NCBI GenBank assembly: GCA_023249675.1
Contig: JAHFCE010000008.1
Coordinates: forward strand, 39,246-103,245
DNA length: 64,000 bases
Direction: 5' to 3'
Source: Elusimicrobiota bacterium
GTDB taxonomy: Bacteria; Elusimicrobiota; Elusimicrobia; UBA1565; UBA9628
Position 1 is the first letter of the stretch; every line of letters begins with the position of its first letter. The position numbers and the translations under genes are program-made. Below are positions 17,702 to 51,578 of the stretch, one piece after another. The notes below the pieces were generated by a model. That model had not been told where the DNA came from. It saw only the letters and a list, made by a program, of their open reading frames with translations, and made no database searches.

Positions 17702-18498
17702 GCGGGCAACTCCCGCGCCCAGGCGGCGAGAGCGGCGGCGAGTTCCGCGGGTTTGTCGAGCGGTATGTGGTGATGGGCGTCCATGATCTCAATGCCGCGG
17801 CCGCGCGGCAGGGCCGCGACGACTCGGGTCATGGCCTCGCGGGGCAGGATCGAGCTGTGCTCGCCGCGCACGATCAAGGCGTCCGCGGAGATTTTCGCAA
17901 GCTGCGGCCACACCGGGCCGTACGGAAAAGCAAACGAGCGCCAGTCGAACTTCCAGGACCAGCCGCGGGGGCCTTGCCGCACGCCGTGGCGCCCGAGCGC
18001 TCGGAGAGCGGCCGCGTCGAGCAAGGTGCCGGGAGGCTGGAGGCGGAACTTGGCGAGCATCGCTTCTTCATTCTCGTAAATCGGCTGGGGGCGCGAGCGG
18101 GTTTTTTCGTACTTGCGCTCGCGCGACGCGTAGACATCCGGCAGAAAGTCGATCGCGCAGACTCCGCGCAGGTGAGCGCTGCGCCGCTCGGCGTAGTCGA
18201 GGGCGATGCGCGCGCCCATCGAGTGCCCCACGAGAATGAAGCGCTCCCAGCCGAGGGCCTTGCGCGCGCTCTCGATATCGTCCACCCACGCCGAGCCGGT
18301 ATAGGCTTCGTTCTCGAGCCAGTCGCTGTCGCCGTGGCCGCGGAAATCGAGCGCGACCGCGTGGAACACGCCCTTCCAGAGGGGAGCGACCGCATCCCAC
18401 CAATGCGTGTGCGCGGCCATGCCGTGCGTCAGGAGGACCGGGACTCCGGGGCCGCCCCAGTCGCGCAGGTGGACCGCGCCGGCCTTGCGGCTCGTCAC
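17698..18498 (-). CDS. Alpha/beta hydrolase fold protein
   Basis: GHSMG nucleophile elbow. Conserved HG oxyanion region. Confidence 0.7.
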   Translation of the reverse strand: MTSRKAGAVHLRDWGGPGVPVLLTHGMAAHTHWWDAVAPLWKGVFHAVALDFRGHGDSDWLENEAYTGSAWVDDIESARKALGWERFILVGHSMGARIALDYAERRSAHLRGVCAIDFLPDVYASRERKYEKTRSRPQPIYENEEAMLAKFRLQPPGTLLDAAALRALGRHGVRQGPRGWSWKFDWRSFAFPYGPVWPQLAKISADALIVRGEHSSILPREAMTRVVAALPRGRGIEIMDAHHHIPLDKPAELAAALAAWARELPA

Positions 18499-21400
18499 GG
18501 CGCCTTGTCGGCGGGGACGATCGCGGCCTGATAGATCTCGTCGTAGGTCCGCACGGCCGTGAGCTTGACGGCGTCGCGCACCTCCTTCGGGATACCCTCG
18601 AGGTCCTTGAGGTTGGCGAAGGGGAAGATCACTTCCGTGTAGCCCATGCGGTGCGCGGCCATGACCTTTTGCTTGAGGCCGCCGATCGGCAGGACGTCGC
18701 CGCGCTTGGTGATCTCTCCGGTCATCGCCAGGCCGGCAACGACCGAGCGTCCGGTGAGATCGCTGAGGATCGCCGTGACCATCAGGCTGCCCGCCGAGGG
18801 CCCGTCAATCTTGCCCGCCGGCGTGATGTTGATGTCCATGTCGATCTTCGTGAAGTCGATCTTTTCGAGGCCGAACTTGGCCGCGTTCTTCCTCACGTAG
18901 GCGTACGCGTTCTTGGCCGAGTCCTCGATGTCTTGGCCGAACTGCTTGCGCAGGGTCAACTTGCCGGTGCCGGGCTCGCTCCAGGCCTCGACGTTCAGCG
19001 TGGAGCCGCCGTAGTCGTTGACCGCGAGTCCCGTCGCCACGCCGACGCCGTTCTGCGCCATCTGGCGCGGGCTGAACTCCTCGCCGCCGAGGTAATGCGC
19101 GATGTCTTTTTCGTCGACGACGCCGGGGACGTTCTCGCCGCGCGTCTCGATCCAGGCGGAGATTTTGCGCAGGACGGACGCGACTTTCTCGCGCAGCCCG
19201 CGCACGCCGGCCTCCATCGTGTAGCCCTCGATGAGGCGGCGCAGGGCCCCTTTCGTCAGCGTCGCCTCAGCAGCTTTGAGACCCGCCTCCTCGAGCTCCT
19301 GAGGCACGAGGTGGCGTTCGGCGATCGCGATCTTTTCGAGCGTCGTGTAGCCCTCGAACTCGATGAGTTCCACACGGTCGCGCAGGGGCCCGGGAATGTT
19401 GCTCAGCTCGTTGGCGGTGACGATGAACAGCACCTCGGAGAGGTCATAAGGAACGTCCAGGTAGCGGTCGCGGAAGGTGTTATTCTGCTTCGGGTCCAGG
19501 ATTTCGAGCAAGGCCGCGGTCGGGTCGCCGGCGTTGCTGTTGCGGCCCATTTTGTCGACCTCGTCCATCAGCATGACGGGATTGACCGTGCCGGCGGCCC
19601 TCATCTGGCGCATGATCTCGCCGGGCATCGAGCCGACGTAGGTCCGGCCGTGTCCGCGCAGCACCGTCTCGTCGTGGACGCCCCCGAGCGAGAGGCGCAC
19701 GAACTTTCGGCCGAGGGCTTGGGCGATCGCGGCGGCAATCGAGGTCTTGCCCACGCCGGGGGGGCCCGTGAAGGCGATGATCGCACCCTTCTTGGACCCC
19801 GTCCTCTTGCGCACCGCCAGGAACTCGAGCACGCGCTCCTTGACCTTCTCCAGGCCTGCGTGATCCCGGTCGAGCGTCCCGCGCGCCGCCGCGATGTCGG
19901 TCACGTCCTCCGTGCGCCGGCTCCAGGGGACGTCTATCAGCCACTCAATGTAGGTCCGAACCTTCTGCGTCTCGGAGTCCCTCGGGGCCATCTGCGCCAT
20001 CTTCTCGTACTCGCGCGTGGTGATCTCTTGGATCGCCTCGGGCATGCCGATCGCCTTCATCTTCGCCTGGAGGGCCTCGATCGAGTCGAGGCTTCCGCCC
20101 CGGCCGTCTTTGGGGTCCGCGGCTCGATGCTCCGCCGGCTTTTTCAGCACGCGAACCCACGTCGAACGGTTGCCGCGTTTGCTGAACTTTAGATTTTCGA
20201 TGAACGCCCGCGTCAGCTCCGCGCCGCGCGCGAGCTCGGCGTCCTTCTTGTCGCCGACCGCTTTCCGGAGCACTTCGAGCGTCGCGACCGCGTCGAGGCC
20301 CGCGGCGAGGTCGGCGCCGATGTTCTGGCGCCGTTCCGCGGCATAGTGGACGTTGGACAGCAAGGACAGGCAGAGTCGGACGACGTCGAGCGGGTCTTTG
20401 GAGAGGGAGCTGCCCAGGGTTTTCTCGTACAGACGCAGCGAGCTCGTGATCGCCTCGAGCTTCGCATTGCCGAGCGCGATCGAGACCTGTTCAAGCGCCT
20501 TGGACTTCGGGCTCAGGCCCTTGTGTGCGGAGTACTTCTTGAAGACCGCGTCGAGGCGCGCGACCGCGCGCAGGTGGCTGGCGGCGTCGGGCGCGTTGGC
20601 GAGCTTGATCGCGTCGATCGCCTCGTTGTGCAGCTCCCAGATGTTGTCGGAGCTGTTCCCGGCCTGCTCGATCAGATCGAAGTAGACGACCTTGCCGTTG
20701 GCGAGAACGAGAAGCTCGCCGCGCGCGGCCAGAGCGAAGATCGCCGCGTTCATCTGCGGCATGTCGAGGCCCAGGGCCTTGCCCGCGCGAGTGAGCGTCT
20801 CGGGCGCGACGGTCTCGCCGGCGGAGGTATGCGCGCGGATCTGTGCGGCGAAGGCCGCGGTCTGCTGGCCCGAGGGCGTCCACGATTCCTCGGGCGCGGG
20901 CGTTTTGGACGTCGGCCCTTCATATAGGAAATCGCGGGCGTCGAATTGTTCAAGCAGAAGGAGTGCCGCGATATAGCCGTCGGCGACCTCGTCCTCGGCG
21001 GGGCGGCCGTCCTTTTTCAGCGGATCGAGCGAGTCGACCAAGGCGACGAGCTTGCGGTGCACGCGCGCGGGCATCGGCGGGACGTAGCCGGCCTGATAGG
21101 TCGCCGTCTTGAGCCACGCGAGGGCTTCCGCCAGGTCGGCGACGCGCTCTGTCAGCTTCGGCGTCAGGGTTTTGAGGCTTTCGAGGTCCTTCTTATGCGC
21201 GCCGAGGAACCCCGAGAAGAACTCGAGCATCGCATTGGCGCGCAGGACCTTGGCTTCCTCGAGCTGGGGAAGCGTCTGGCCCGGTTGGCCGGCCTTCTCG
21301 TAAGCGGCGACGGCCCGGTCCGCTTGGGCGACGGCGCGGGCGTGGTCGGCGGGATTGGCGCTGTTCAACAGCGCGACGGCGTTGCTGGCGAGGACGTCGG

Positions 21401-22103
21401 CGGCGTGTTCGGGGGCGGGCGCATGGGCGGGGGCGTCTACGCGCGCGCGGAAACTGAAGTAAACCGTGTCTTTGTTGTCTCGCATCGCGAGATGGCCCTC
21501 TTGGAGTAGCTCGGTGAACAAGGTTCCGGTTTTCTCCGGGTCGAGGCCGAGCCTCGCGCCGATCTCGCCGACCTTCGCGTAGGTCGCGATCGTGCCCGGC
21601 GCCGTTTCGTTGCGGATGCCGGCGAGGAGCCCGGCCTTGGCGTCCGGCGGCGCGTTCCCGCCGGGGGGCGCGGTCTTCTCGGAGCGAGGCAGGGCCTTGG
21701 GGCCGGAGCTCTCGGAACCGGCGACGTCGAAAGCCGCGGCGCGGCGTTCGGACGCGCCTTCAAACGCGCGGCCGGCCTGCGCCTTCGATTCGCTACCGCT
21801 TGACGTCGGCGTGAGCGTTACGGTTTGGCGCGCCGCGCCCGCGAGCGCCGCGCGCGGATCGGGGGTTGCGGCCTGCGCCGCTGTAGGCGCCGTGAGCAGA
21901 GATGGGGTCAGCCCCGCCGCGGACGCAGTGAGCGGCGGCGTGTTCGTCGCGGGGGCCTCAAGTCGCGGGAGCGCGAGCGACATGGTGAGTCCCGCTTCGC
22001 CCGCGACGGGCACACGCGCGACGCCCGTTGCGAAGGCAGGCCCGGGCGCCGCCATGGAAAGGGCGAGGGCGGCCGCCAGGCATCGGCGGGTGAACCGTCT
22101 CAT
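18495..22103 (-). CDS. lon: LonA-type ATP-dependent protease with atypical N-terminus (signal-like segment, A/P-rich linker, two winged-helix-like module repeats in place of the LON N-domain)
   Basis: AAA+ (GPPGVGKTS) and protease Ser (DGPSAGS). LonA linker motif (YIEWLIDVPW). N-terminus is MRRFTRRCLAAALALSMAAPGPAFA followed by low complexity. Confidence 0.85.
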   Translation of the reverse strand: MRRFTRRCLAAALALSMAAPGPAFATGVARVPVAGEAGLTMSLALPRLEAPATNTPPLTASAAGLTPSLLTAPTAAQAATPDPRAALAGAARQTVTLTPTSSGSESKAQAGRAFEGASERRAAAFDVAGSESSGPKALPRSEKTAPPGGNAPPDAKAGLLAGIRNETAPGTIATYAKVGEIGARLGLDPEKTGTLFTELLQEGHLAMRDNKDTVYFSFRARVDAPAHAPAPEHAADVLASNAVALLNSANPADHARAVAQADRAVAAYEKAGQPGQTLPQLEEAKVLRANAMLEFFSGFLGAHKKDLESLKTLTPKLTERVADLAEALAWLKTATYQAGYVPPMPARVHRKLVALVDSLDPLKKDGRPAEDEVADGYIAALLLLEQFDARDFLYEGPTSKTPAPEESWTPSGQQTAAFAAQIRAHTSAGETVAPETLTRAGKALGLDMPQMNAAIFALAARGELLVLANGKVVYFDLIEQAGNSSDNIWELHNEAIDAIKLANAPDAASHLRAVARLDAVFKKYSAHKGLSPKSKALEQVSIALGNAKLEAITSSLRLYEKTLGSSLSKDPLDVVRLCLSLLSNVHYAAERRQNIGADLAAGLDAVATLEVLRKAVGDKKDAELARGAELTRAFIENLKFSKRGNRSTWVRVLKKPAEHRAADPKDGRGGSLDSIEALQAKMKAIGMPEAIQEITTREYEKMAQMAPRDSETQKVRTYIEWLIDVPWSRRTEDVTDIAAARGTLDRDHAGLEKVKERVLEFLAVRKRTGSKKGAIIAFTGPPGVGKTSIAAAIAQALGRKFVRLSLGGVHDETVLRGHGRTYVGSMPGEIMRQMRAAGTVNPVMLMDEVDKMGRNSNAGDPTAALLEILDPKQNNTFRDRYLDVPYDLSEVLFIVTANELSNIPGPLRDRVELIEFEGYTTLEKIAIAERHLVPQELEEAGLKAAEATLTKGALRRLIEGYTMEAGVRGLREKVASVLRKISAWIETRGENVPGVVDEKDIAHYLGGEEFSPRQMAQNGVGVATGLAVNDYGGSTLNVEAWSEPGTGKLTLRKQFGQDIEDSAKNAYAYVRKNAAKFGLEKIDFTKIDMDINITPAGKIDGPSAGSLMVTAILSDLTGRSVVAGLAMTGEITKRGDVLPIGGLKQKVMAAHRMGYTEVIFPFANLKDLEGIPKEVRDAVKLTAVRTYDEIYQAAIVPADKAP

Positions 22104-25100
22104 TTCTTCCTCTCTGCCGTGAACGCGCCCTTGGCGGCGTTCCAGTCCACAGTGATCGCATCGCCCTGAGCGATGCGGTCCTCGAGCTCGGCCGCGACGA
22201 TTGCGTCGGGCAGCTTGTGGTCGACAATCTGCTTGAGCGGGCGGGCGCCATATTTCTGGGCTTCGGTGCGCTTGAGAATCTCGGCGCGGGCGCCGGGCGT
22301 GAGCGTCATTCTCATGCTGCGCTTCTCCCGGAGTTGGTTTTCGAACTTCTTTAGGAGGAGATCAAGAATCTTTTCCATCTGGGGCCTGCCGAGGTCTTTG
22401 AACACCACGACCCCGTCGTCCTCGCCGACGCGGCCGATGAGTTCCGGCCGCAGCGCGGCCCGAAGCGCGGCAAGGTACTGCGCGTGCCGCGCGGCCGCGG
22501 CTTCCTCGGGCTGCTCGCTCCCGGAGCGAAAGCCCATGTGGGGGCGCCCGGGCGAGTCGACGCCCTCGTCGTCTCCGGCGAGCGCGCCGCCGATGTTCGA
22601 GGTCATCATGACGATCGTGTGGGAGAAGTCCACTGTGCGGCCACGGCCATCGGTGAGCCGCCCGTCCTCAAGGATTTGCAGGAGGATGTTCAACACCTCG
22701 GGGTGAGCCTTCTCGATTTCGTCGAACAGGATGACGGAGTACGGGTTGCGGCGGATTTTTTCGGTGAGCTGGCCGGCCTCCTCGTAGCCGACATAGCCGG
22801 GGGGCGCTCCGACCATGCGGGAAACCGCCTCCTTGCCTACGTACTCGCTCATGTCCAGGCGAACCATCTTATTCTCCGAGCCGAACACGATCCTCGCCGT
22901 TTGGCGCGCGAGCTCGGTTTTGCCCACCCCTGTCGGGCCGAGGAAGATGAATGCGGCGGTCGGCTGTTTGGGATCGCGCAGGCCCATGCGGCCGCGCTGC
23001 ACGCCCTTGGCCACCTTTGAGACCGCCTCATCCTGGCCGATCACGGCCGCGCCGAGCTTTTCGGGCAGGTTCTTGAGCCGGTCCTTTTCCGCGGCGCTGA
23101 TCTCGCCGGCGGGAATACCGGTGCGCCGGGAGATTTCCTGGGCGATGTCTTCCGGAAGGACCTCGCGCCGCGCCTTCGCGGCGCCTGACTGTGCGGCCAA
23201 GGAGGCCCTCATCTTGACTGCGACGCTCGCGTCGTCGAGCAGGTCGAGGGCCGAGTCGGGAAGGTTGCGGTCCGTGATGTAGCGCAAGGCCAGCGCCACG
23301 ACGGCCTTCACCGTTTCCGCGCCGATCACGACTCCTTGCTTTTTTTCGTAGATCGACTTGACGCCCGCGACGATGTGTTCAGCCTCCTCCTGAGTTGGAG
23401 GCAGGAGCTGGATGGGGTTGAAGCGGCGGGCAAGCGCGCCGTCCTTCTCGATCGTGCGGTACTCATCCAACGTCGTCGCTCCGATCAGCGAGATCGAGCC
23501 ATCGGCGAGGGCGGCCTTCAACATGTTGGCGGCGTCCTGCGTGCCTTCCTTGATGGCCCCGGCTCCGACGAGCGTGTGGATCTCGTCGATGAAGAGACGG
23601 ACCTTTCCCTGCGAGTCGCGGGCCTCTTGTATGATTTTGACCATGCGTTTTTCGAAGTCGCCGCGAAAAGTCGTGCCGGCGACGACCGCGGCGAGGTCGA
23701 GGTGGATGATGTTGACGCCCTCAAGTTCGGGGATCTTTCCGTCGACGATCATCTGCGCCAAGCCGTTGACCATCTCGCTCTTGCCCACGCCCGGCGCGCC
23801 GATGATGAGGGGATTGGTTTTCTTGAGGCGCAGCAGGGTCTTCACGATCTGGAGCATCTCGGACTCGCGGCCGATCAGCGGGGGCAGTTTGCCCTCGACG
23901 GCGAGGCGCGTCACGTTGGCGCCGTAGGCGTTGAGCGCCGTGTAACTCTTGTCGTCCTTCGCGATAAGCGGGAACAGCCCGCGGCGGATATTGGCGACCG
24001 GGATCAGGTCGATGTCGTTGCCGGGAAGCGGCGCGCCCTTGTGGAATGCCTGGAACAGGGCCCAGCCGGCGGACATGGCCTTCTGCTGGTCGGGGTCCCA
24101 GTGCTGGAACGGCGGGAGCTTCACGGCGAATTTGGCGAGTCGAGCCTGTTTGTCGGCATCGAGCGGCGTTGGATCGGCCTGATTAGCGGCATAGAATTGG
24201 CCCTCGAGCGCCTTCAAGACGTCATCGATGAACGCGTGCGCGTTCTGGTTGACCGGGTCCGCGGGCTTCACGGGGAGCTTCTTGCCGTACGCGGAGAGCA
24301 CGTCGCGCGAGAGTTCGAGGGCCGCGTTCTTATAGAGGATGGCCACTTCGGCGCGGGCCGCGTCGGCGCCGGCGGCCGCGAGGAGGCGCAGGGCTTCGCC
24401 GAAAGAGGCGAGGGCGAGCACGTGAGAATCCGGGCTGCGGCCGTTGAGCAGGTCGATGCCCTCGATTGTCTTTTCGTTGGCCCCATCGAGCAAGGTGTCG
24501 TTGGCCCGGGCTCCGTCGTCGCGCTGGACCGCTTGGCTGTAAATGTAGACGCGGCCGGAGAAAAGACGGACGAGCTGGCCTTCCTTGGCGAGCTCGTCGA
24601 CCGCCCGGTTGCCCTGGGCGGCCGGCACGCCGGCGCCGATCGCGAGCTGGTTGATGCGCATGCGGTCGAGGGCCTCTCCGGGCTTCACATTTTGGGCCAG
24701 CGCGTCGCGCATCGCTTGGACCTGGTCGGCGGTCGGCTTGGCCGGTGTGGGGTCGCTTGCGGCGGCGGCGGAGCGCAGCGGGGTCAGAGCGGAGAGCACG
24801 TCGAACCTTTCCCCGCCTTCGAAGGCGGCGGCGGCGGCGGACTTGGACGCGCTGGGACTCAGCGCCGGAGTGAGGTTCTGGGCCGAGAGCGCGGCGCCAT
24901 CGAGAACGGCCTTGGCGGCGGCCGGCTGGCCCTGGGCGGGGATCGCGGCTGCAACGAGACCGGCCGGCATCGGAGCGGAAAGGGGCGTCTCCGCGGGGCT
25001 TGCGGGTGAAAGCGTCGCGGGAAGTTTCGGCGTCATGGAGAGGCCGCCGAGCGTGGCGCCGATGGCGCCGACTGTTCCGGAGGCGGGGACCGCGGCCCCC

Positions 25101-25225
25101 CGGGCTTTGCCCACCTGGGCGAAGGCCTCGTGATTTCCTGGAAGCGCGACGAGGAAGGCGGCCAGAAGAGAGCGGGACAGGAGGGTCGAGGGGCGGCCGT
25201 TCATCTTTTTCATGAGTGTCTCCAA
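22100..25225 (-). CDS. ClpA/ClpB-family double-AAA+ unfoldase with atypical N-terminus homologous to that of the adjacent Lon
   Basis: D1 (GAPGVGKSEMV) and D2 (GPTGVGKTELAR) AAA modules with a short inter-domain linker (ClpA/C-like). N-terminal signal-like segment MKKMNGRPSTLLSRSLLAAFLVALPGNHEAFA. 4-nt overlap with lon. Confidence 0.85.
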   Translation of the reverse strand: METLMKKMNGRPSTLLSRSLLAAFLVALPGNHEAFAQVGKARGAAVPASGTVGAIGATLGGLSMTPKLPATLSPASPAETPLSAPMPAGLVAAAIPAQGQPAAAKAVLDGAALSAQNLTPALSPSASKSAAAAAFEGGERFDVLSALTPLRSAAAASDPTPAKPTADQVQAMRDALAQNVKPGEALDRMRINQLAIGAGVPAAQGNRAVDELAKEGQLVRLFSGRVYIYSQAVQRDDGARANDTLLDGANEKTIEGIDLLNGRSPDSHVLALASFGEALRLLAAAGADAARAEVAILYKNAALELSRDVLSAYGKKLPVKPADPVNQNAHAFIDDVLKALEGQFYAANQADPTPLDADKQARLAKFAVKLPPFQHWDPDQQKAMSAGWALFQAFHKGAPLPGNDIDLIPVANIRRGLFPLIAKDDKSYTALNAYGANVTRLAVEGKLPPLIGRESEMLQIVKTLLRLKKTNPLIIGAPGVGKSEMVNGLAQMIVDGKIPELEGVNIIHLDLAAVVAGTTFRGDFEKRMVKIIQEARDSQGKVRLFIDEIHTLVGAGAIKEGTQDAANMLKAALADGSISLIGATTLDEYRTIEKDGALARRFNPIQLLPPTQEEAEHIVAGVKSIYEKKQGVVIGAETVKAVVALALRYITDRNLPDSALDLLDDASVAVKMRASLAAQSGAAKARREVLPEDIAQEISRRTGIPAGEISAAEKDRLKNLPEKLGAAVIGQDEAVSKVAKGVQRGRMGLRDPKQPTAAFIFLGPTGVGKTELARQTARIVFGSENKMVRLDMSEYVGKEAVSRMVGAPPGYVGYEEAGQLTEKIRRNPYSVILFDEIEKAHPEVLNILLQILEDGRLTDGRGRTVDFSHTIVMMTSNIGGALAGDDEGVDSPGRPHMGFRSGSEQPEEAAAARHAQYLAALRAALRPELIGRVGEDDGVVVFKDLGRPQMEKILDLLLKKFENQLREKRSMRMTLTPGARAEILKRTEAQKYGARPLKQIVDHKLPDAIVAAELEDRIAQGDAITVDWNAAKGAFTAERKK

Positions 25226-44257: not shown

Positions 44258-44347
44258 CCGTCTATTCTATCAGTCCGGGCCCGTCTTTACAGGCCATAAT
44301 CCCCTAAGCCTCGACATGGGGGGAGCGTAAAAAGTAGAATCGTCGAG

Positions 44348-45106
44348 GTGAGCCATCCACAACAGCCCGTCGGGCCTTCGCCTGCCGCCCCTGAGACGCC
44401 CACTCTCGATCTGCGCGAGAAGGGCGGACCCAAGGACGGCCAGCCTCAATTTTCCGACAAACGACTCTTCATGCAGTTGACCGCGTTTACCGGCTGCCGC
44501 GATGCCCGGCCCTTGATCGATGGGCTCATCGGCTGCGGCGTGGACTGCGTCCTTTATGAGGAAGTGAATGATCCGACCGGCGTCGCCGTGCTCGCGATGA
44601 CCGAGAACCCGGAACTGCTCGTCACGAAGCTGCGCCGCGACCTCGCGTCCGGCCCGTTCAAGGATCTCACGCCGAAAAATGAGTTCGCGATGCTCGGCCG
44701 CACCTACGCGCTCGGCTACGAGCCGAAGCTGGAGGACTGGCTCCTGCACCGTCCGCGCCGCATGGCGTTGGATCCTGGAACACCCTGGGCGCTCTGGTAT
44801 CCCTTGCGTCGCACGGGGTCCTTTTATCGCCTGCCGCGCCCCGAGCAGCAGCAGATCCTGCGCGAGCACGGGGTGATCGGCCGCCAGTTCGGCGACGCCG
44901 GCGCAGCCCAAGACGTGCGCCTCGCCTGTCACGGCCTCGACAAGAACGACAATGACTTCGTCATCGGCCTGATCGGCAAGGAGCTTCACCCGCTCTCCGC
45001 GCTTGTCGAGGCGATGCGCCCCACGGTGCAGACCTCGCAGTATCTTGAGAGCCTGGGACCATTCTTCGTCGGCCGCGCGCTGTGGCGCACGCCGCAGAAA
45101 GCTTAA
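44348..45106 (+). CDS. Chlorite dismutase/HemQ-like family protein (tentative)
   Basis: Cld-like pattern around WYPLRRTGSFYRLPRPEQQQILREHGVIGRQF, about 250 aa. Confidence 0.4.
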   Translation: MSHPQQPVGPSPAAPETPTLDLREKGGPKDGQPQFSDKRLFMQLTAFTGCRDARPLIDGLIGCGVDCVLYEEVNDPTGVAVLAMTENPELLVTKLRRDLASGPFKDLTPKNEFAMLGRTYALGYEPKLEDWLLHRPRRMALDPGTPWALWYPLRRTGSFYRLPRPEQQQILREHGVIGRQFGDAGAAQDVRLACHGLDKNDNDFVIGLIGKELHPLSALVEAMRPTVQTSQYLESLGPFFVGRALWRTPQKA

Positions 45107-45130
45107 AACCCCGTCCGCAAGGAGCCCTCC

Positions 45131-45535
45131 ATGTCCATTCGCAAATTCCGCATCGCGATGTCCGAGCGCTGCTTTCGCTTTAAGCCCGATGCGCTGCCCT
45201 CTCATGCCCCGCACAAGCCCGGCGTGTATGAGTTCGTCACCTTCGACGCGCAGAAAAACCCGCAGGTGCTGTTCGTCGGCGTGGCATTGACGGGCTCCGT
45301 GTACGAGGCGCTCGCCGCGCACATGGACAACAAGGTAGCACCCACCGCGAAGGAGCTTTTTGCCGCGGCGCCCGACATCTACTTCGACTACGTCGCCTCC
45401 GCCGACATCGACGAGGCCGACGAGCTCAAGGACATCGCGGGCGCGTTCGTCGCGAAGCATAAGCCCCGCTTCAACGTCGGCCCGGCTCCGACGTCCGGCA
45501 AGCACGCCTCTGTCGAGGTGGAAGAGGTCGGGTAA
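45131..45535 (+). CDS. Hypothetical protein with weak GIY-YIG-like N-terminal motif (PGVYEF...LFVGVA)
   Basis: Motif resemblance only. Confidence 0.35.
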   Translation: MSIRKFRIAMSERCFRFKPDALPSHAPHKPGVYEFVTFDAQKNPQVLFVGVALTGSVYEALAAHMDNKVAPTAKELFAAAPDIYFDYVASADIDEADELKDIAGAFVAKHKPRFNVGPAPTSGKHASVEVEEVG

Positions 45536-45536
45536 G

Positions 45537-45950
45537 TTGCCGCTTTCTTCTTTCCCGGCGCTGAACGCGGGCCTCAACGCGACCTGCGCTGTTCTACTTC
45601 TGCTGGGCTGGGTCCTGATCAAGACGGGCCGGCGCGAGGCGCATCGCCTCGCCATGGTCGCGGCCTTCCTATGCTCGGCGGCGTTCCTGGCCTGCTATCT
45701 GTGGTATCACTTCCACGTGGGCTCGGTGCGTTTCCAGAAGACGGGCTTGATTCGGACCGTGTATTTCTCAATCCTGCTCACGCACACGATTCTCGCCGTT
45801 GCCGTCCTGCCCGTGATCCTGCGGACTTTATTTCTCGCGGCGAAGGGGCGCTTCGCCGAGCACCGGCGCTGGGCGCGCTGGGCTTTCCCGATCTGGCTGT
45901 ACGTCTCGGTCACGGGCGTGACCGTCTACTGGATGCTCTACCGCCTGTAG
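45537..45950 (+). CDS. DUF420 family membrane protein
   Basis: Four TM helices. TTG start immediately after the upstream stop. Confidence 0.5.
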   Translation: MPLSSFPALNAGLNATCAVLLLLGWVLIKTGRREAHRLAMVAAFLCSAAFLACYLWYHFHVGSVRFQKTGLIRTVYFSILLTHTILAVAVLPVILRTLFLAAKGRFAEHRRWARWAFPIWLYVSVTGVTVYWMLYRL

Positions 45951-45960
45951 GCGGGAGTCG

Positions 45961-46281
45961 TCAGGTCGCGAACGACTTGCCGCAGGAGCAGGTCGAGGTG
46001 GCCTGCGGATTTTTGACCACGAAGCTGGATTTCATGAGGCTCTCTTCGTAGTCCACTTGAGATCCGCCGATGAAGAAGTCGGCCTTCGGGTCCACGACGG
46101 TCTTCGCGCCGAACGCCTCGTGCACGAGATCGTCCTTGGCGATCTCCCCGGCGACGACGAACTCGTAGCTCATGCCCGAGCATCCTCCCGAGCCGACCTT
46201 CACGCGCAGAACCGGCGGCAGGCCTTTTTTGGAAGCCAGGGCCTGGATCTTCTTGGCGGCGCGCTCGGTCAGAGTGATCAT
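45961..46281 (-). CDS. Iron-sulfur cluster insertion protein (IscA/ErpA/HesB family)
   Basis: HesB signature with three Cys (GCSG...C.CG). Confidence 0.75.
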   Translation of the reverse strand: MITLTERAAKKIQALASKKGLPPVLRVKVGSGGCSGMSYEFVVAGEIAKDDLVHEAFGAKTVVDPKADFFIGGSQVDYEESLMKSSFVVKNPQATSTCSCGKSFAT

Positions 46282-46290
46282 GTTTTGAAT

Positions 46291-46614
46291 TTAGAACTGC
46301 TTGGATTTGCCGCAGCCGCAGGAACCTTTCTCGAGCGGGTTCTTGATCTTGAAGCCGGAGCTCGTCTCGTCCTCGGTGTAGTCGATCGTCGCGTTCTCGA
46401 CGAACTTCAGGCTGTCGGCGTCCACGATGACGTCGAAGCCGGACTGGGGGAGGATTTTGTCGGCGGGCGTTTTGTCATCGAAGCCGATCTTGTACTCGTA
46501 ACCGGCGCAGCCGGACGCCGCGACGCGCAGGCGCAACGCCTTGCCCTGTGCGGTGTCTTCGGTTTTGAGGAAATCGGTGATCTTCTTGGCGGCTTGCGGC
46601 GTGATGGTCAACAT
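46291..46614 (-). CDS. Second IscA/HesB-family paralog
   Basis: Same fold (GCAGYEY...SCGCGKS). Confidence 0.75.
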   Translation of the reverse strand: MLTITPQAAKKITDFLKTEDTAQGKALRLRVAASGCAGYEYKIGFDDKTPADKILPQSGFDVIVDADSLKFVENATIDYTEDETSSGFKIKNPLEKGSCGCGKSKQF

Positions 46615-46699
46615 TGGTTTCTCCCAACCTTTTAATCCTGACTGAAAAGGTCGTGTATACAGTATAGGCCGACGAAGGGGACCGCGTCAAGAGCTCGAA

Positions 46700-47194
46700 T
46701 CAGGCCAAGCGGCCGGATTTGAGGAAAGCGGCGAGCCGCGGGCGCTCGAACAGCCTGTGACGCCGGGACAGCCTAACGAGAAGGATCAGCCCGGCGATCT
46801 CGCCCAAGACGTTCCACGGCGTAAAGGAGTCGGCGATCGGTCCGCGGACGAACGGAGGGAAATCTCCGAGCAGCGGCCAGAACAGGATGGCGGGATTGGG
46901 GTCGCGCCACATGCTGTCGAGCAGGAAATGACCGATGTAGCAGGCCCACAGCACGAGCGCGGGCTTCGGCCGCCGCTTCCAGATCAGGAGTGCGGTCAGG
47001 ACGAATAGCGATAAGAATACAGTGTGCCCGAAGCTGCGGGTGTTGTGATTGATGAGAGCTGGGTCCAAGAGCGACAGAGGCTTGTCGAGGAGGTCGGGCC
47101 CCAGCGCGAGCGCGGCCGCCCAGCGCGGATCGACGTCGCGATCGATAGCGCGCGCGGCTGAGATCGTCAAGCCGGCGTGAGCGAAGACGAGCAC
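46700..47194 (-). CDS. Membrane-bound metal-dependent hydrolase (YdjM/DUF457-like)
   Basis: His-rich TM protein (HNTRSFGH, GHFLLD). 4 bp downstream of the giant membrane protein gene. Confidence 0.45.
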   Translation of the reverse strand: MLVFAHAGLTISAARAIDRDVDPRWAAALALGPDLLDKPLSLLDPALINHNTRSFGHTVFLSLFVLTALLIWKRRPKPALVLWACYIGHFLLDSMWRDPNPAILFWPLLGDFPPFVRGPIADSFTPWNVLGEIAGLILLVRLSRRHRLFERPRLAAFLKSGRLA

Positions 47195-47198
47195 TGCG

Positions 47199-50100
47199 TC
47201 AGCGCAGTTGGCCGTTGATCCAGAAGATCAGCGCCAAGGCCGCGATGATCCCGGCGAGCGCGAACGCGCCGAGAACGCCCGTTGCGGCGAGCGCGCCCAC
47301 GAGGAGCCAGCCGGCGAGGCCGAGTGGCGCCCACGAGGTCATCAGCATGACGCCAAGGCCGATCACAGCGCCCGCGATGCCCCACGCGAAGAAGGACGCG
47401 GCGGTTTTCTTTGCCGAGCGCCACGTGCGGTCCCAATGCCGGCTCGCGTCCTGATCGACGATGGGAGACGGGATCGGGCCCCCGCTTTTCGCCGAGCGGT
47501 AGGCGACGACGAGGCTGCGGACGTAGCCGACCCAGCCTGGGATCGTCGCCGCGAAGGCCGCGACGATGGTGGCGGGAAGAATATTGGCCATGCGGATCCA
47601 GCCGTCCGAGATCGCGGCCTCGCCTTCGGGGAATTGGAAGCGGTCCGTGAGCTGGTTTAAGCGCTGCATTTCGGCGCGCAGGGCGCCGTACGTCCAATGG
47701 TCGAGGTAGCGCTGGGCCGGGCCGCCGATGTCCGCGAAACGGAAAGCCAGCGCGACCGAGGAGGTCAGCGCGTACGGAGCGGCCACGAGAACGCCCGCGG
47801 CGACGCCGACCAGGCCGAACGCGACGCCGAGGACGAAGGCGACAAGCTTGAGAAACGCGTTGCCGAGGAAGCCCAAGGCTCCCGAATATTTAAAGTCGTC
47901 GGCGACGACATGCTTGAAGTACGGGCGGCCCAGGATCAGCGCGCCGAAGGCGGCCGAGCCGATTATGCCCGAGACGAGCCCGGCGAGGAAGCCGAACACG
48001 AAGGGCACGATACGGCGCAGGACCTTCATGGCGGTCTCGAAGGCGGTGCGCAGGAAGGGGAGCATCTCGTAGACGACCTGGCGCGCGCCTGCGTAGGCGG
48101 CGGAAGCTCCGACGGACGCGACCGCGAACGCGGCTCCGGCTTGGGCCCAGGCGAGGCCGAGCGTGCCGCCGATGGCGCGGTACACAGGCTCCAGACGCAC
48201 GGCCTTGCCGGCTGCGGTCCAGTAGTCGAGCGAGAGACTGAAGCCGGCCTGCGAATGGTCGACGGCGCTCGGGAGTAGGCGCGTCCACAGCAGGGGCTGG
48301 GACACGGCAAGACCGGCGGAGAGGCCCGCGAGGGCGGCGAGAGGGGAGATCAGGGGCAGGCCGAGGGCGACCGCGGCGTAGACCCCGGCGGCGAGGCCGA
48401 GAGCGCCGAGTGTCGCGGCAAGCCACACGGGCGGCTTTCCGACCGGCGCCTGCTCTGTCTTGGGAGCGGGTGCTGCAGGGGCTTCATAGGAAGAAGCCCG
48501 TTCGGCTTCGGGCTTGGACTTGGCCAGCCTCGCGTCGGCGAGGCTGCGCAGGTAGGCGACTCCTCCGGCGACGACCAAGGCGATCGTCGAGGGGATCGCG
48601 GCGAGGAGGAAGCTGACCGTGCGCACGTACAGGCGCCAGATCGGCAGTTCGGCGCCTTCGGAGCCGAGCTTGATTGTGACCACATCGCGCGCCTGACTCA
48701 GCGCGTTTGGAAGCGAGCGGCGATCCCAGGTCCGGAAATACTTTTCAGACGCCTCGCCCGTGCCGGCCCAGCGCACGCCGAGCGACAGGCCGTGGGTGAG
48801 CGCGACGGGAATGCCCGCGATCACCCCGACGACGAAAGAACCGACAAACACCGCGAGCGCGGGCACGACTAAGGTCAGTGCCATCAGCACTCCCGCGCTG
48901 ACCTGGGCCCCGGACGGCCTGGAGCGCAGGGCGTCCTCACGCTTGAAGATTTCGCCCATCGGGCGGAACAGGTTCGTGGCGACGAAGAAGCCGGATTTGA
49001 GCGCGCCCAAGAGGGTTCCGAAGATAAAACCAGGCACGAACGGCACGATGTTTTTCAGGACCTTGACGGCCCAGTTGAAGAAGCGCTTGAGGAAGGGAAC
49101 GAACTGCGTCACCACGGCCATGAAGCCGGTCCACGCCGCGGCGCCGGGCTTGGCGGCCGCGCCGAGCAGGCCGCCGATCAGGCCGGACAGGGGCGCGGCG
49201 AAAATGGTGAGAATGTAGAGGGACTCCGACTCTCGTAGAGTGGCGTCGCCGCGAAGCATGGCGGCGTAGATCCGCTGATTGGCATCGATCCAGCCTTCGA
49301 ATGACTGTTTGGTGGAGAGGCCGCCTTCCGAGATCACATCGGACAACCAGCCGGACAACACCTGAGGCTGGCTCAGAGCCAAGCCTAAGCCTGCGCCGGC
49401 GAGGCCGCCCAGAACTCCGTACGCCAGGACGCCGGCGCCCGCGCCGATCAGGCCGAGCATAGTGGGCGCGACGAAGCCGGGTCGCGGGGTGACCGCAGGT
49501 TCGGTTCCGGTTTCACCGGTCGAGCGCGAGGGGGTGTCGGCGCGCTTGACGTCCACGCCGTGCAACGCGGCGCTCGTCGCGCGGACGATGGTTCCGATCG
49601 AAACCAAGGGCAGCCAGAGCGCCGTATAAAGGGAGATGGCGGTCCCATTGAGCGCGCGGGTCGTGCGCGCGGCCAAAGACAGGTTGTCTTTCGCGAGCGG
49701 GAAGCCGCGTTCAATAAGGACGCTGAAGGCGCCGTCATTTTTGACGGCGAGTACCCAGCGCTTGAAGAACGTCGCGCCCGCATCATTGACGCCGGACCAG
49801 GCGAAGGCGTTCAAGAGCGCGCCCATCATGACGTGCACGGGGCTGACGAGCAGGCCGATCGCCGTGCCGAGAGCACCCGTGACGACGATCGCCGCGAGCG
49901 CGGCCACCTGTGTTAGGCGGTAGGCGACCCAGCCGGGCAAGGACGCGGGCTTGTACGTGGTTCCAAAGGCGTCGCGGGCGATCGGACCGGCGAGAAGAAC
50001 CGCGCCCACGCTGGCGCCGGCGAATGCGGTCTTGAGCGCGCCGGTGATGAAGCCGACGATGAAGGGGAAACTGTGCTCGATGACGCGGGTGAGGAAGCGG

Positions 50101-51578
50101 ATCACGCGCTCCATCCACGGCAGGAAGCCGACGATGACCTCGCGCGCGCCGCGGAAGGCGGCGAGCAGCGGCGTGCCCACCACGCGGTAGGCCGCGCCGA
50201 GGGCGAAGGCGATCGGGGACATGACGTAGCCGGCGAGGATGAAGGGCCAAGCGATGACGGGGTATCGGAGAATGTTGGCCGAGAGTTCCTTTTTCATGGC
50301 CTCGTCGGTGGAGCTGCCGCGCAGGACGGAGTCGAAGATCAGGCCGAAGCGCGCCCAGAAGCGGTAGGTCATGGCGCCGGCGGAGACCGAGCTGTTCTTG
50401 AGATCGGTGGGAAAGCCTTTCCATGTTTCCACGGAGAACGCGGCGAAGCCGGCGAGCGCGCCGAGCGCGATCCAGCCGGCCGCGAGGGCGAGAGCGGGGA
50501 CGGCGACGACTGGAGCGAGAAGACCGCCCAAAACGGCGACGGCCCAGGCGGATGTGTACCACGCGGCGGCAGCGCCCGCGGCGGCAAGCGCCAAGCCGAC
50601 GGAGACGCGGGCGTGCGGGGTTTTGGGCGCGTTGTTTGACGGAGGCGCGGAGACGGGTCGTGTTTTGCCGGAGAGAGCATCCGCCTTGTCTGCCTTAATC
50701 TTTTGCGAAGCGGAGGGGGCGTTATCGTTTGAGGGGGCTCCCAGAAACAGAAGGCCTTCTTCCTCCCGGGAAGTCTCCATGGGAGTTCTTGCGGTCACGA
50801 GAGAACGAGCGTAGCTTGAAACCAATTCAGGGTACTTCCCTTGAATCGCTCCTCCGACCGCCATCTCGCTTCCTTCAGGGACCTTTAAAAAGAGGCTGAT
50901 CTCATCAAGCCCCATCCTCTCGGCTTGATCGATTAGAGGATCTGGATCTTGCACCATTTGATGGCCGATGACTTTCAAGAATGCAGCGACTTTCTGCTGC
51001 AATCTTCCTTCGCCCTGCAGAGCGGCGCTCTTGACGTGGAGTATGATCTGGCCGGGCCGGTACTCGATTGCGGCGGGCGCGGACGGAACGGGCAGGCCTC
51101 CTTTGTGAGGACGGGACCCGTCGAAGTGCCTGCGCATTTCGTCGAAGCGAGCCTCAAGAGAAACAGATGGTTCTACAACGGGGATGGGGATGGGATTATT
51201 CGGGGTCAGCGCGGCGGGAACGACGGGCCCGGCGGCGTCAACGGCGACGGATTTCACCGCTGCAGGTAAGGCGGAAGTCTTGAACGACAACGGCGCGACG
51301 GCAACGGAGGGGGCAAGCGGTGTCGGCACGGCGTTCGCGCCGGAGAGCGACAGATTTAAACCCAGTGGGGAACCCGGAGCGAGCGCGGCACCCGCCGACG
51401 GCAAGGACATCTCCACGCGGACGGGGGCACCGTTCATAGCGCCGCCGGTCGTTACCGCTGTCGTCCGCATTTGAGCGACGGCTTGGTAAACGCTTAGACC
51501 TGGGGCGGTTTGGATCAAGACAAAGGTCAGAAACGACGCGACAAAACGGCAGAACGAGGAGCGGGGGAAGTTGGCCAT
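47199..51578 (-). CDS. Giant (1459 aa) polytopic membrane protein: exported Ala/Pro-rich N-terminal region plus three internal repeats of about 340 aa; no recognisable family
   Basis: Signal-like N-terminus. Repeat cores FLTRVIEHSFPFIVGFITGALK (aa about 496), FLKRFFNWAVKVLKNIVPFVPGFIFGTLLGALK (aa about 829), FLRTAFETAMKVLRRIVPFVFGFLAGLVSGIIG (aa about 1175). Confidence 0.6.
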   Translation of the reverse strand: MANFPRSSFCRFVASFLTFVLIQTAPGLSVYQAVAQMRTTAVTTGGAMNGAPVRVEMSLPSAGAALAPGSPLGLNLSLSGANAVPTPLAPSVAVAPLSFKTSALPAAVKSVAVDAAGPVVPAALTPNNPIPIPVVEPSVSLEARFDEMRRHFDGSRPHKGGLPVPSAPAAIEYRPGQIILHVKSAALQGEGRLQQKVAAFLKVIGHQMVQDPDPLIDQAERMGLDEISLFLKVPEGSEMAVGGAIQGKYPELVSSYARSLVTARTPMETSREEEGLLFLGAPSNDNAPSASQKIKADKADALSGKTRPVSAPPSNNAPKTPHARVSVGLALAAAGAAAAWYTSAWAVAVLGGLLAPVVAVPALALAAGWIALGALAGFAAFSVETWKGFPTDLKNSSVSAGAMTYRFWARFGLIFDSVLRGSSTDEAMKKELSANILRYPVIAWPFILAGYVMSPIAFALGAAYRVVGTPLLAAFRGAREVIVGFLPWMERVIRFLTRVIEHSFPFIVGFITGALKTAFAGASVGAVLLAGPIARDAFGTTYKPASLPGWVAYRLTQVAALAAIVVTGALGTAIGLLVSPVHVMMGALLNAFAWSGVNDAGATFFKRWVLAVKNDGAFSVLIERGFPLAKDNLSLAARTTRALNGTAISLYTALWLPLVSIGTIVRATSAALHGVDVKRADTPSRSTGETGTEPAVTPRPGFVAPTMLGLIGAGAGVLAYGVLGGLAGAGLGLALSQPQVLSGWLSDVISEGGLSTKQSFEGWIDANQRIYAAMLRGDATLRESESLYILTIFAAPLSGLIGGLLGAAAKPGAAAWTGFMAVVTQFVPFLKRFFNWAVKVLKNIVPFVPGFIFGTLLGALKSGFFVATNLFRPMGEIFKREDALRSRPSGAQVSAGVLMALTLVVPALAVFVGSFVVGVIAGIPVALTHGLSLGVRWAGTGEASEKYFRTWDRRSLPNALSQARDVVTIKLGSEGAELPIWRLYVRTVSFLLAAIPSTIALVVAGGVAYLRSLADARLAKSKPEAERASSYEAPAAPAPKTEQAPVGKPPVWLAATLGALGLAAGVYAAVALGLPLISPLAALAGLSAGLAVSQPLLWTRLLPSAVDHSQAGFSLSLDYWTAAGKAVRLEPVYRAIGGTLGLAWAQAGAAFAVASVGASAAYAGARQVVYEMLPFLRTAFETAMKVLRRIVPFVFGFLAGLVSGIIGSAAFGALILGRPYFKHVVADDFKYSGALGFLGNAFLKLVAFVLGVAFGLVGVAAGVLVAAPYALTSSVALAFRFADIGGPAQRYLDHWTYGALRAEMQRLNQLTDRFQFPEGEAAISDGWIRMANILPATIVAAFAATIPGWVGYVRSLVVAYRSAKSGGPIPSPIVDQDASRHWDRTWRSAKKTAASFFAWGIAGAVIGLGVMLMTSWAPLGLAGWLLVGALAATGVLGAFALAGIIAALALIFWINGQLR

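Follow-up and report, generated by a model that had tools for sequence, protein, structure and literature searches.

The 64,000-nucleotide stretch of an Elusimicrobiota bacterium genome analysed here (contig JAHFCE010000008.1; hereafter the window) raises the question of what is encoded by a very long open reading frame (ORF) on its minus strand, 47199..51578. A first-pass annotation, made from the letters alone, had described its product as a giant polytopic membrane protein with three internal repeats. Our analysis indicates with high confidence that the giant protein is composed of a signal sequence, an N-terminal arm, three modules and a C-terminal tail (Table 1). The role that we tentatively prefer, as the most likely of several poorly separated options, is that of a non-catalytic inner-membrane scaffold or organiser with a periplasmic arm.

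The window has a GC content of 63–68% and contains many long spurious ORFs, so that the length of the giant ORF is by itself weak proof of a gene, and conservation is decisive. The ORF runs from an ATG start codon without interruption over 1459 codons. A search of 5.8 billion protein clusters returned 44 matching proteins, comprising P0001, a database protein of 1412 aa that is identical to the giant ORF except for a later annotated start, and 43 homologues. The homologues share 29–72% identity with the giant protein, are full-length or near-full-length, and align over the whole hydrophobic part; their lengths are 1093–1589 aa, except for one 866-aa fragment. No stop breaks the frame, and its preservation in the homologues substantiates the earlier description of a real gene with a long open frame.

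The hydrophobic part of the giant protein is made up of three homologous units, A, B and C, of 328–366 aa, which are defined by segment BLAST, shuffles and hhalign. Specifically, units B and C share 32% identity over 328 aa (106 bits), units A and C share 23% identity over 269 aa (73 bits), and units A and B share 25% identity over 271 aa (65 bits). The same unit pairs reach a mean of 20–24 bits and a maximum of 30–40 bits in 200 composition-preserving shuffles, and 22–25 bits when sequences are reversed. Furthermore, hhalign of the family sub-alignments for the units gives probabilities of 99.9–100% and E-values of 1.5e-36 to 3.3e-40 over 279–314 columns. Whole-protein self-BLAST with composition correction gave no off-diagonal match, and the repeats emerged in segment-versus-segment searches only. 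Duplication within a unit, in which one hairpin-loop-helix would match another, was not detectable (hhalign probability 5.8%).

These results confirm the three internal repeats of about 340 aa that had been proposed, together with the core motif in each of them (Table 1), and refine the picture by giving the units unequal lengths and by adding a non-repeat tail with two more hydrophobic helices. They also bear on the reading that the gene is an artefact, namely a spurious long ORF in high-GC DNA whose 'repeats' reflect an Ala/Gly/Leu-rich composition. Such ORFs do occur in the window, an example being a 461-aa antisense ORF at 44270..45655 (-), but the giant protein is conserved down to 29% identity over its full length in 43 homologues, shuffle and reversal controls are separated from the unit matches by 14–29 standard deviations, profile-profile comparison gives E-values of 1e-36 to 3e-40, and the AlphaFold2 model of unit A is confident. 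The artefact reading is refuted by the conservation, the shuffle controls and the profile-profile comparison, and we give it practically no chance.

All family members share one arrangement, three units that follow each other as A-B-C, never more or fewer. Scores against positional profiles are by far the highest for the profile of a unit's own position (for example, 567 bits versus 121 and 79 for the other two), which argues that the triplication predates the family and that A, B and C are now non-equivalent; judged from sequence, unit A of one member is the orthologue of unit A in every other, and the same holds for B and C. Members of the family (P0001–P0067), the giant protein included, have a signal peptide, a variable arm, the three units and a hydrophobic tail, and align over their full length. 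Proteins of 1568–1590 aa that were candidates for a four-unit arrangement are in fact A-B-C proteins in which an insertion splits a unit, this being unit A in P0048–P0050 and additionally unit C in P0050, with an extra soluble insert between B and C. The element inserted in unit A of P0048–P0050 is an additional hydrophobic hairpin, and the soluble insert between B and C, of about 100 residues, is found in P0048, P0049, P0050 and P0052 (for example, ...GAIRLIFKGAADIEAALKAGRVSREMAGYRIELIAQD...).

The hydropathy of the sequence and of the family, together with two AlphaFold2 models, yields the order of helices within a unit. A unit begins with a tight hydrophobic hairpin, followed by a loop with an amphipathic helix (FRFWARFG in unit A) and a hydrophobic helix. 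A strongly amphipathic Arg-rich helix comes next and leads directly into a glycine-zipper helix (IVPFVxGFxxGxxxG). The remainder of the unit is a second tight hairpin of 40–48 residues, which has a Pro at its centre; after it come a hydrophilic loop (about 50 residues), one more hydrophobic helix and a Pro-rich charged linker. The Arg-rich helices of the three cores are the three strongest amphipathic helices of the protein, with hydrophobic moments (muH) of 0.67–0.76.

Conservation is highest in unit C (mean column value 0.77), followed by A (0.72) and B (0.67). No stretch of the family is more conserved than GSAAFGALLLGRPYF (residues 1207–1221, unit C), and other top stretches are FRFWARFGLIFDSV (residues 404–418) and the hydrophilic loop of unit C at residues 1280–1330, which reads IGGP..FDHWTYGALRAE..RLNQLTDRF..DGWIRM and in which E1303, R1306 and R1329 are invariant. 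This loop is a candidate interaction surface. Invariant positions are mostly G, P, W, A, F and R, and conserved charges sit at helix ends and in loops; among the conserved residues that are charged or polar, K1244 and Q557 alone fall within hydrophobic stretches. Of the His residues, just H1223 and H1294 reach 85% conservation, both in hydrophilic loops of unit C, and the mature protein has no Cys, the sole one (Cys10) lying in the signal peptide. The membrane part consists of 17.8% Ala and 10.9% Gly, and small-residue motifs are more frequent than expected, with 22 GxxxG observed versus 13.5±3.2 expected and 69 small-xxx-small-xxx-small observed versus 48±6.7 expected.

The N-terminal 324 residues are unrelated to the repeat units. 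Their first 36 residues resemble a Sec-type signal peptide, with R6 and R11, a hydrophobic core at residues 12–25 and an AVA|Q site; R11, A14, P26 and G27 are nearly invariant across the family, whose consensus is RFxAxxLSxxLxxTAPGLxVYxAxAQ. Because this signal-peptide-like segment is conserved across the family, we favour the long start codon over Met48. The public annotation of P0001 starts at Met48 and thereby removes the conserved segment (affected region, 51438..51578 (-)). Upstream of the ATG at 51578 we see nothing that resembles a Shine-Dalgarno sequence. The segment suggests that the signal would be cleaved and the N-terminal region exported. The exported N-terminal region of about 330 aa in the first-pass annotation thus holds in its extent, about 324 aa with a signal-peptide-like start, while its export is predicted.

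The arm that follows, of about 290 aa, is rich in Pro, Ala and Ser (11.5%, 14.6% and 9%, respectively) and is probably disordered. It varies in length and sequence among homologues, which cover only about 79% of the giant protein, and it tolerates inserts in the manner of a spacer. No Pfam family matches the arm at E ≤ 10. In the window protein, the arm contains an insert of about 125 residues that is not of low complexity and may be a small alpha/beta domain; no other family member has this insert, Pfam gives no match to it, and it does not resemble the soluble inserts found elsewhere in the family. At the opposite end, the 84-residue tail gives no significant hhalign match to the units.

Many 19-residue windows of the giant protein have a Kyte-Doolittle hydropathy of 1.5–2.6, and the strong hydrophobicity in the profiles of both the sequence and the family bears out its description as a polytopic membrane protein. 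There are about 23 hydrophobic helices in all, about seven in each of the three units plus those of the tail. The AlphaFold2 model of unit A alone is all-helical, with a predicted local distance difference test score (pLDDT) of 86.3 and a predicted template modelling score (pTM) of 0.59. The model of residues 320–1459 is likewise all-helical, with a pLDDT of 75.8 and a pTM of 0.40, and because of the latter value the arrangement of the units relative to each other is not confidently predicted.

With seven hydrophobic helices per unit, each homologous unit would have to face the opposite way from the one before it. However, the homologous amphipathic loop carries a net positive charge in every unit (family means of K+R versus D+E, 6.8/1.7, 4.9/0.9 and 5.5/2.7), which argues for one common membrane side, and a model with 23 spans shows no K+R bias by the positive-inside rule (45.3 versus 41.9). 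Either each unit has one re-entrant element, or the orientation alternates from unit to unit. Owing to this combination of an odd number of hydrophobic helices per unit with equally positive homologous loops, the protein could help to test how homologous modules in tandem acquire their orientation as they insert into the membrane.

The giant protein matches no known family. Searches of Pfam, NCBIfam and PHROGs returned nothing significant for the whole protein, each unit, the arm or the tail; Pfam gave nothing at E ≤ 0.01 for the whole protein, and the matches at E ≤ 10 were at chance level and did not recur in a scan of 24 unit sequences. PDB sequence-profile searches with full-length and unit profiles gave chance matches only (for example, PsbX at E 0.07), and Foldseek comparison of both models with PDB, and of the unit model with BFVD, gave best E-values of 0.55–0.65 with template modelling (TM) scores ≤ 0.28. 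The least bad fold matches, all at chance level, were VirB6/TrwI chains, ABC and MFS transporters, and tape-measure proteins. In addition, such a protein is not described in the literature that we searched in full text. The earlier statement that it has no recognisable family holds across all of these searches.

VirB6/TrbL proteins resemble the giant protein in being Gly-rich helical membrane proteins. The best, non-significant fold match was the VirB6/TrwI chain 8rt9_F (probability 0.33, TM-scores 0.23/0.28, 20% identity, 271 columns); 7o3v_G/J were also among the best non-significant matches, and a TrbL-like protein was among the BFVD matches. The two differ in that the Foldseek E-values are 2.0–2.3 and the TM-scores are far below fold level. 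Furthermore, Pfam TrbL does not match the giant protein, and none of the giant-gene loci examined contains type IV secretion genes.

The main rival to a scaffold is a channel or secondary transporter for a hydrophobic or uncharged substrate, with the three modules enclosing or flanking a permeation path in the form of a single-chain pseudo-trimer or of three parallel conduits. Internal repetition of multi-helix modules is typical of transporters, and the giant protein resembles RND/MmpL proteins (2×6 transmembrane helices), ABC exporters and three-repeat mitochondrial carriers in having tandem homologous multi-helix modules in one chain, their number being fixed across the family. The presence of exactly three units in every member, the roughly 23 hydrophobic helices, and well-conserved motifs next to the transmembrane helices (PxALT, GRPYF, and K516/K860 in the glycine-zipper helix of units A/B) also speak for transport. 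The comparison breaks down at the level of sequence and fold, where Pfam, PDB profiles and Foldseek reveal no similarity to any transporter family. Specifically, no RND/MmpL family of Pfam (such as ACR_tran or MMPL) matches the units at E ≤ 10, no RND or MmpL chain is among the top Foldseek matches in PDB, and in place of an RND fold with 2×6 helices and two large periplasmic loops between them, the giant protein has 3 × about 7 helices and a tail. ABC, MFS and other known transporter folds show no sequence or fold similarity either, there is no nucleotide-binding domain as in ABC exporters, and a module exceeds a carrier repeat by far in size. Inside the hydrophobic helices, hardly any conserved residue is charged or polar, the pTM of 0.40 gives no confident assembly of the three units, and no substrate-related neighbour is conserved. 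We therefore regard a channel or transporter as possible but unlikely. The suggestion of a transporter or 'machine' in the first-pass annotation is not borne out, since neither sequence nor fold carries an MmpL/RND, ABC or MFS signal, no ATPase or partner gene is conserved, and buried conserved charges are almost lacking.

The family is rare and restricted to one lineage. We built a unit profile, A3, from 24 unit sequences and scored it against every one of 1.84 billion representative proteins. At E ≤ 0.001 it found 26 proteins, all of them multi-unit family members or fragments thereof, and this search revealed neither stand-alone single-unit proteins nor distant relatives; the family thus amounts to 26 clusters at 50% identity. 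In a set of one genome per GTDB species (185,579 species), the gene is present at 18 loci, in single copy per genome. Of the corresponding metagenome-assembled genomes (MAGs), 17 of 18 are labelled Elusimicrobia or Elusimicrobiota, including one Candidatus Endomicrobium trichonymphae, and one is labelled only 'bacterium'; several of the record names indicate groundwater. The giant gene is a genuine single-copy chromosomal gene encoding a lineage-restricted orphan protein of one small lineage of uncultured Elusimicrobia.

This distribution also bears on whether the giant protein could be secreted and insert into membranes, as a toxin, an effector or a phage-derived tape-measure-like protein would, instead of residing in the membrane. 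A signal peptide followed by Gly/Ala-rich hydrophobic helices would suit such a protein, JGI labels the homologue P0008 a 'phage-related protein', and phage tail tape-measure proteins are likewise long, helical and Gly/Ala-rich with hydrophobic segments. However, the tape-measure match to phrog_58 (E 0.7) and the tape-measure and tail matches in BFVD (E > 1) are all at chance level, 2.9 million IMG/VR viral contigs contain no relative, and the gene lies in single copy in a housekeeping neighbourhood (type III glutamine synthetase (GSIII), Mrp, IscA and PBP1) with no phage or secretion-system genes nearby. Furthermore, about 23 strongly hydrophobic helices would be hard to keep soluble for secretion. 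We reject a phage origin, given the lack of viral relatives, and consider a secreted membrane-inserting protein very improbable.

The genomic context differs between two clades. Among loci with at least 45% identity, the giant gene is divergent from a type III glutamine synthetase gene, which is followed by an Mrp/NUBPL ATPase gene, and two IscA genes lie further downstream. The neighbourhood in the distant clade (L002–L004 and L019–L023) has no gene in common with the window, and no operon partner common to near and distant clades was found. The conserved synteny around the giant gene reflects relatedness rather than function. In the distant clade, a pair of convergent genes lies directly downstream of the giant gene, encoding an unannotated protein (about 200 aa) and a TPR protein (about 380 aa) (L002 8844..10635, L004 10856..12627, L020 4058..5796, L023 10130..11952); the 3′ end of the former overlaps that of the giant gene by a few bases.

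The gene 4 bp downstream of the giant gene's stop codon encodes a YdjM-family membrane protein, as had been noted, with a PF04307 match of 35.4 bits (gathering cut-off 29) over profile positions 1–140 of 176. The tight arrangement invites the idea of a functional pair, in which the giant protein would, for example, present or channel a membrane or envelope substrate to a YdjM-type membrane hydrolase, and a gap of a few bases recurs in L005/L012, L007, L009, L015, L016 and L024. However, YdjM adjoins the giant gene in only 6 of 13 closely related loci; it is missing from the other seven (L001/L011, L006, L008, L010, L013, L014 and L017), where the next gene is convergent, and from all loci of the distant clade. 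The giant gene is thus maintained without YdjM, which is a real but facultative neighbour, and a functional pair is improbable. A second association that had been suggested for checking, with a Lon/Clp pair, did not materialise: the pair is 22 kb away (18495..25225), Lon is absent from every related locus, and Clp is matched in these loci only once, over 41 aa of AAA type, in a distant contig (L002/L021). The Lon/ClpB-like pair is unrelated to the giant membrane protein.

Three features favour the scaffold role: the pattern of conserved residues, an arm that resembles a spacer, and the lack of any partner gene that would supply energy or relate to a substrate. In this role of a structural scaffold or organiser without catalytic activity, the giant protein would be directed by its signal sequence so that the arm lies in the periplasm and the modules lie in the cytoplasmic membrane. 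The helices would pack via small-residue motifs, with the Arg-rich amphipathic helices resting on the surface of the membrane. The conserved unit C loop would offer a binding surface, and the disordered arm would be a periplasmic spacer or tether. Reticulon-type membrane-shaping proteins have hydrophobic hairpins and amphipathic helices, and Piezo blades are arrays of repeated transmembrane units. By analogy, the tight hydrophobic hairpins and Arg-rich interfacial helices of each unit may be likened to the former and the tandem array of units to the latter; we offer both likenesses as mechanistic leads without a claim of membership. The probability that remains beyond the readings named here falls to something else.

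A bolder reading is that the unit of about 340 residues is a previously unseen membrane-protein fold founding a new superfamily, with three seven-helix modules per chain, possibly in alternating orientation, that form a new channel, transporter or membrane-shaping device specific to groundwater Elusimicrobia. We consider this a long shot. If the unit were a new fold, it would represent a new helical membrane-protein architecture of three diverged 340-residue modules in fixed order, and the giant protein would in addition mark an uncultured lineage about which little is known. For now the practical impact is small, as the family is rare and its function a guess, and orphan membrane proteins are common in metagenomic dark matter.

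Table 1. Parts of the giant membrane protein and other genes in the window
Feature	Position	Strand	Basis or remark
Giant membrane protein, complete ORF	47199..51578	-	1459 aa + stop codon; frame kept in 43 homologues
Sec-type signal-peptide-like segment, residues 1–36	51471..51578	-	Read from sequence and family conservation
Pro/Ala/Ser-rich, poorly conserved N-terminal arm, residues 37–324	50607..51470	-	Composition, homologue coverage
Insert in arm, residues ~165–290	50709..51086	-	Unique to window protein
Repeat unit A, residues 325–690	49509..50606	-	Segment BLAST, shuffles, hhalign
Unit A core, residues 485–533	49980..50126	-	Arg-rich amphipathic helix, then Gly-zipper hydrophobic helix
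Repeat unit B, residues 700–1040	48459..49481	-	Segment BLAST, shuffles, hhalign
Unit B core, residues 826–872	48963..49103	-	Arg-rich amphipathic helix, then Gly-zipper hydrophobic helix
Repeat unit C, residues 1048–1375	47454..48437	-	Segment BLAST, shuffles, hhalign
Unit C core, residues 1173–1219	47922..48062	-	Arg-rich amphipathic helix, then Gly-zipper helix; includes GSAAFGALLLGRPYF
Unit C hydrophilic loop, residues 1280–1330	47589..47741	-	Motifs given in text
Non-repeat C-terminal tail, residues 1376–1459	47202..47453	-	Charged linker, then two long hydrophobic helices
YdjM-family membrane protein gene	46700..47194	-	PF04307 E 9.4e-9; 164 aa
Two tandem IscA/HesB-type Fe-S assembly genes	45961..46281, 46291..46614	-	PF01521; same strand as ydjM, after it
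DUF420 membrane protein gene	45360..45950	+	PF04238 E 3e-43
Chlorite-dismutase-family gene	44348..45106	+	PF06778 E 1.9e-14
ClpB-like double-AAA ATPase gene, 1041 aa	22100..25225	-	First Clp AAA domain begins at residue 473
Lon-type protease gene, 1202 aa	18495..22103	-	Lon domains begin at residue 777
Adenylate/guanylate cyclase - AAA_16 - TPR signalling protein, 1086 aa	6737..9997	+	

Several minor observations concern the other genes of Table 1. The 461-aa antisense ORF is spurious, the real genes there being on the plus strand, and in tblastn it still matches the antisense strand of the orthologous gene of L001 and of L005. The Lon-type and ClpB-like genes overlap by 4 bp, and each encodes a very long N-terminal region to which no Pfam family matches. 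The IscA pair is syntenic in most related loci, and a sigma-70-like promoter match is located at 46690..46661, between ydjM and the first IscA gene.

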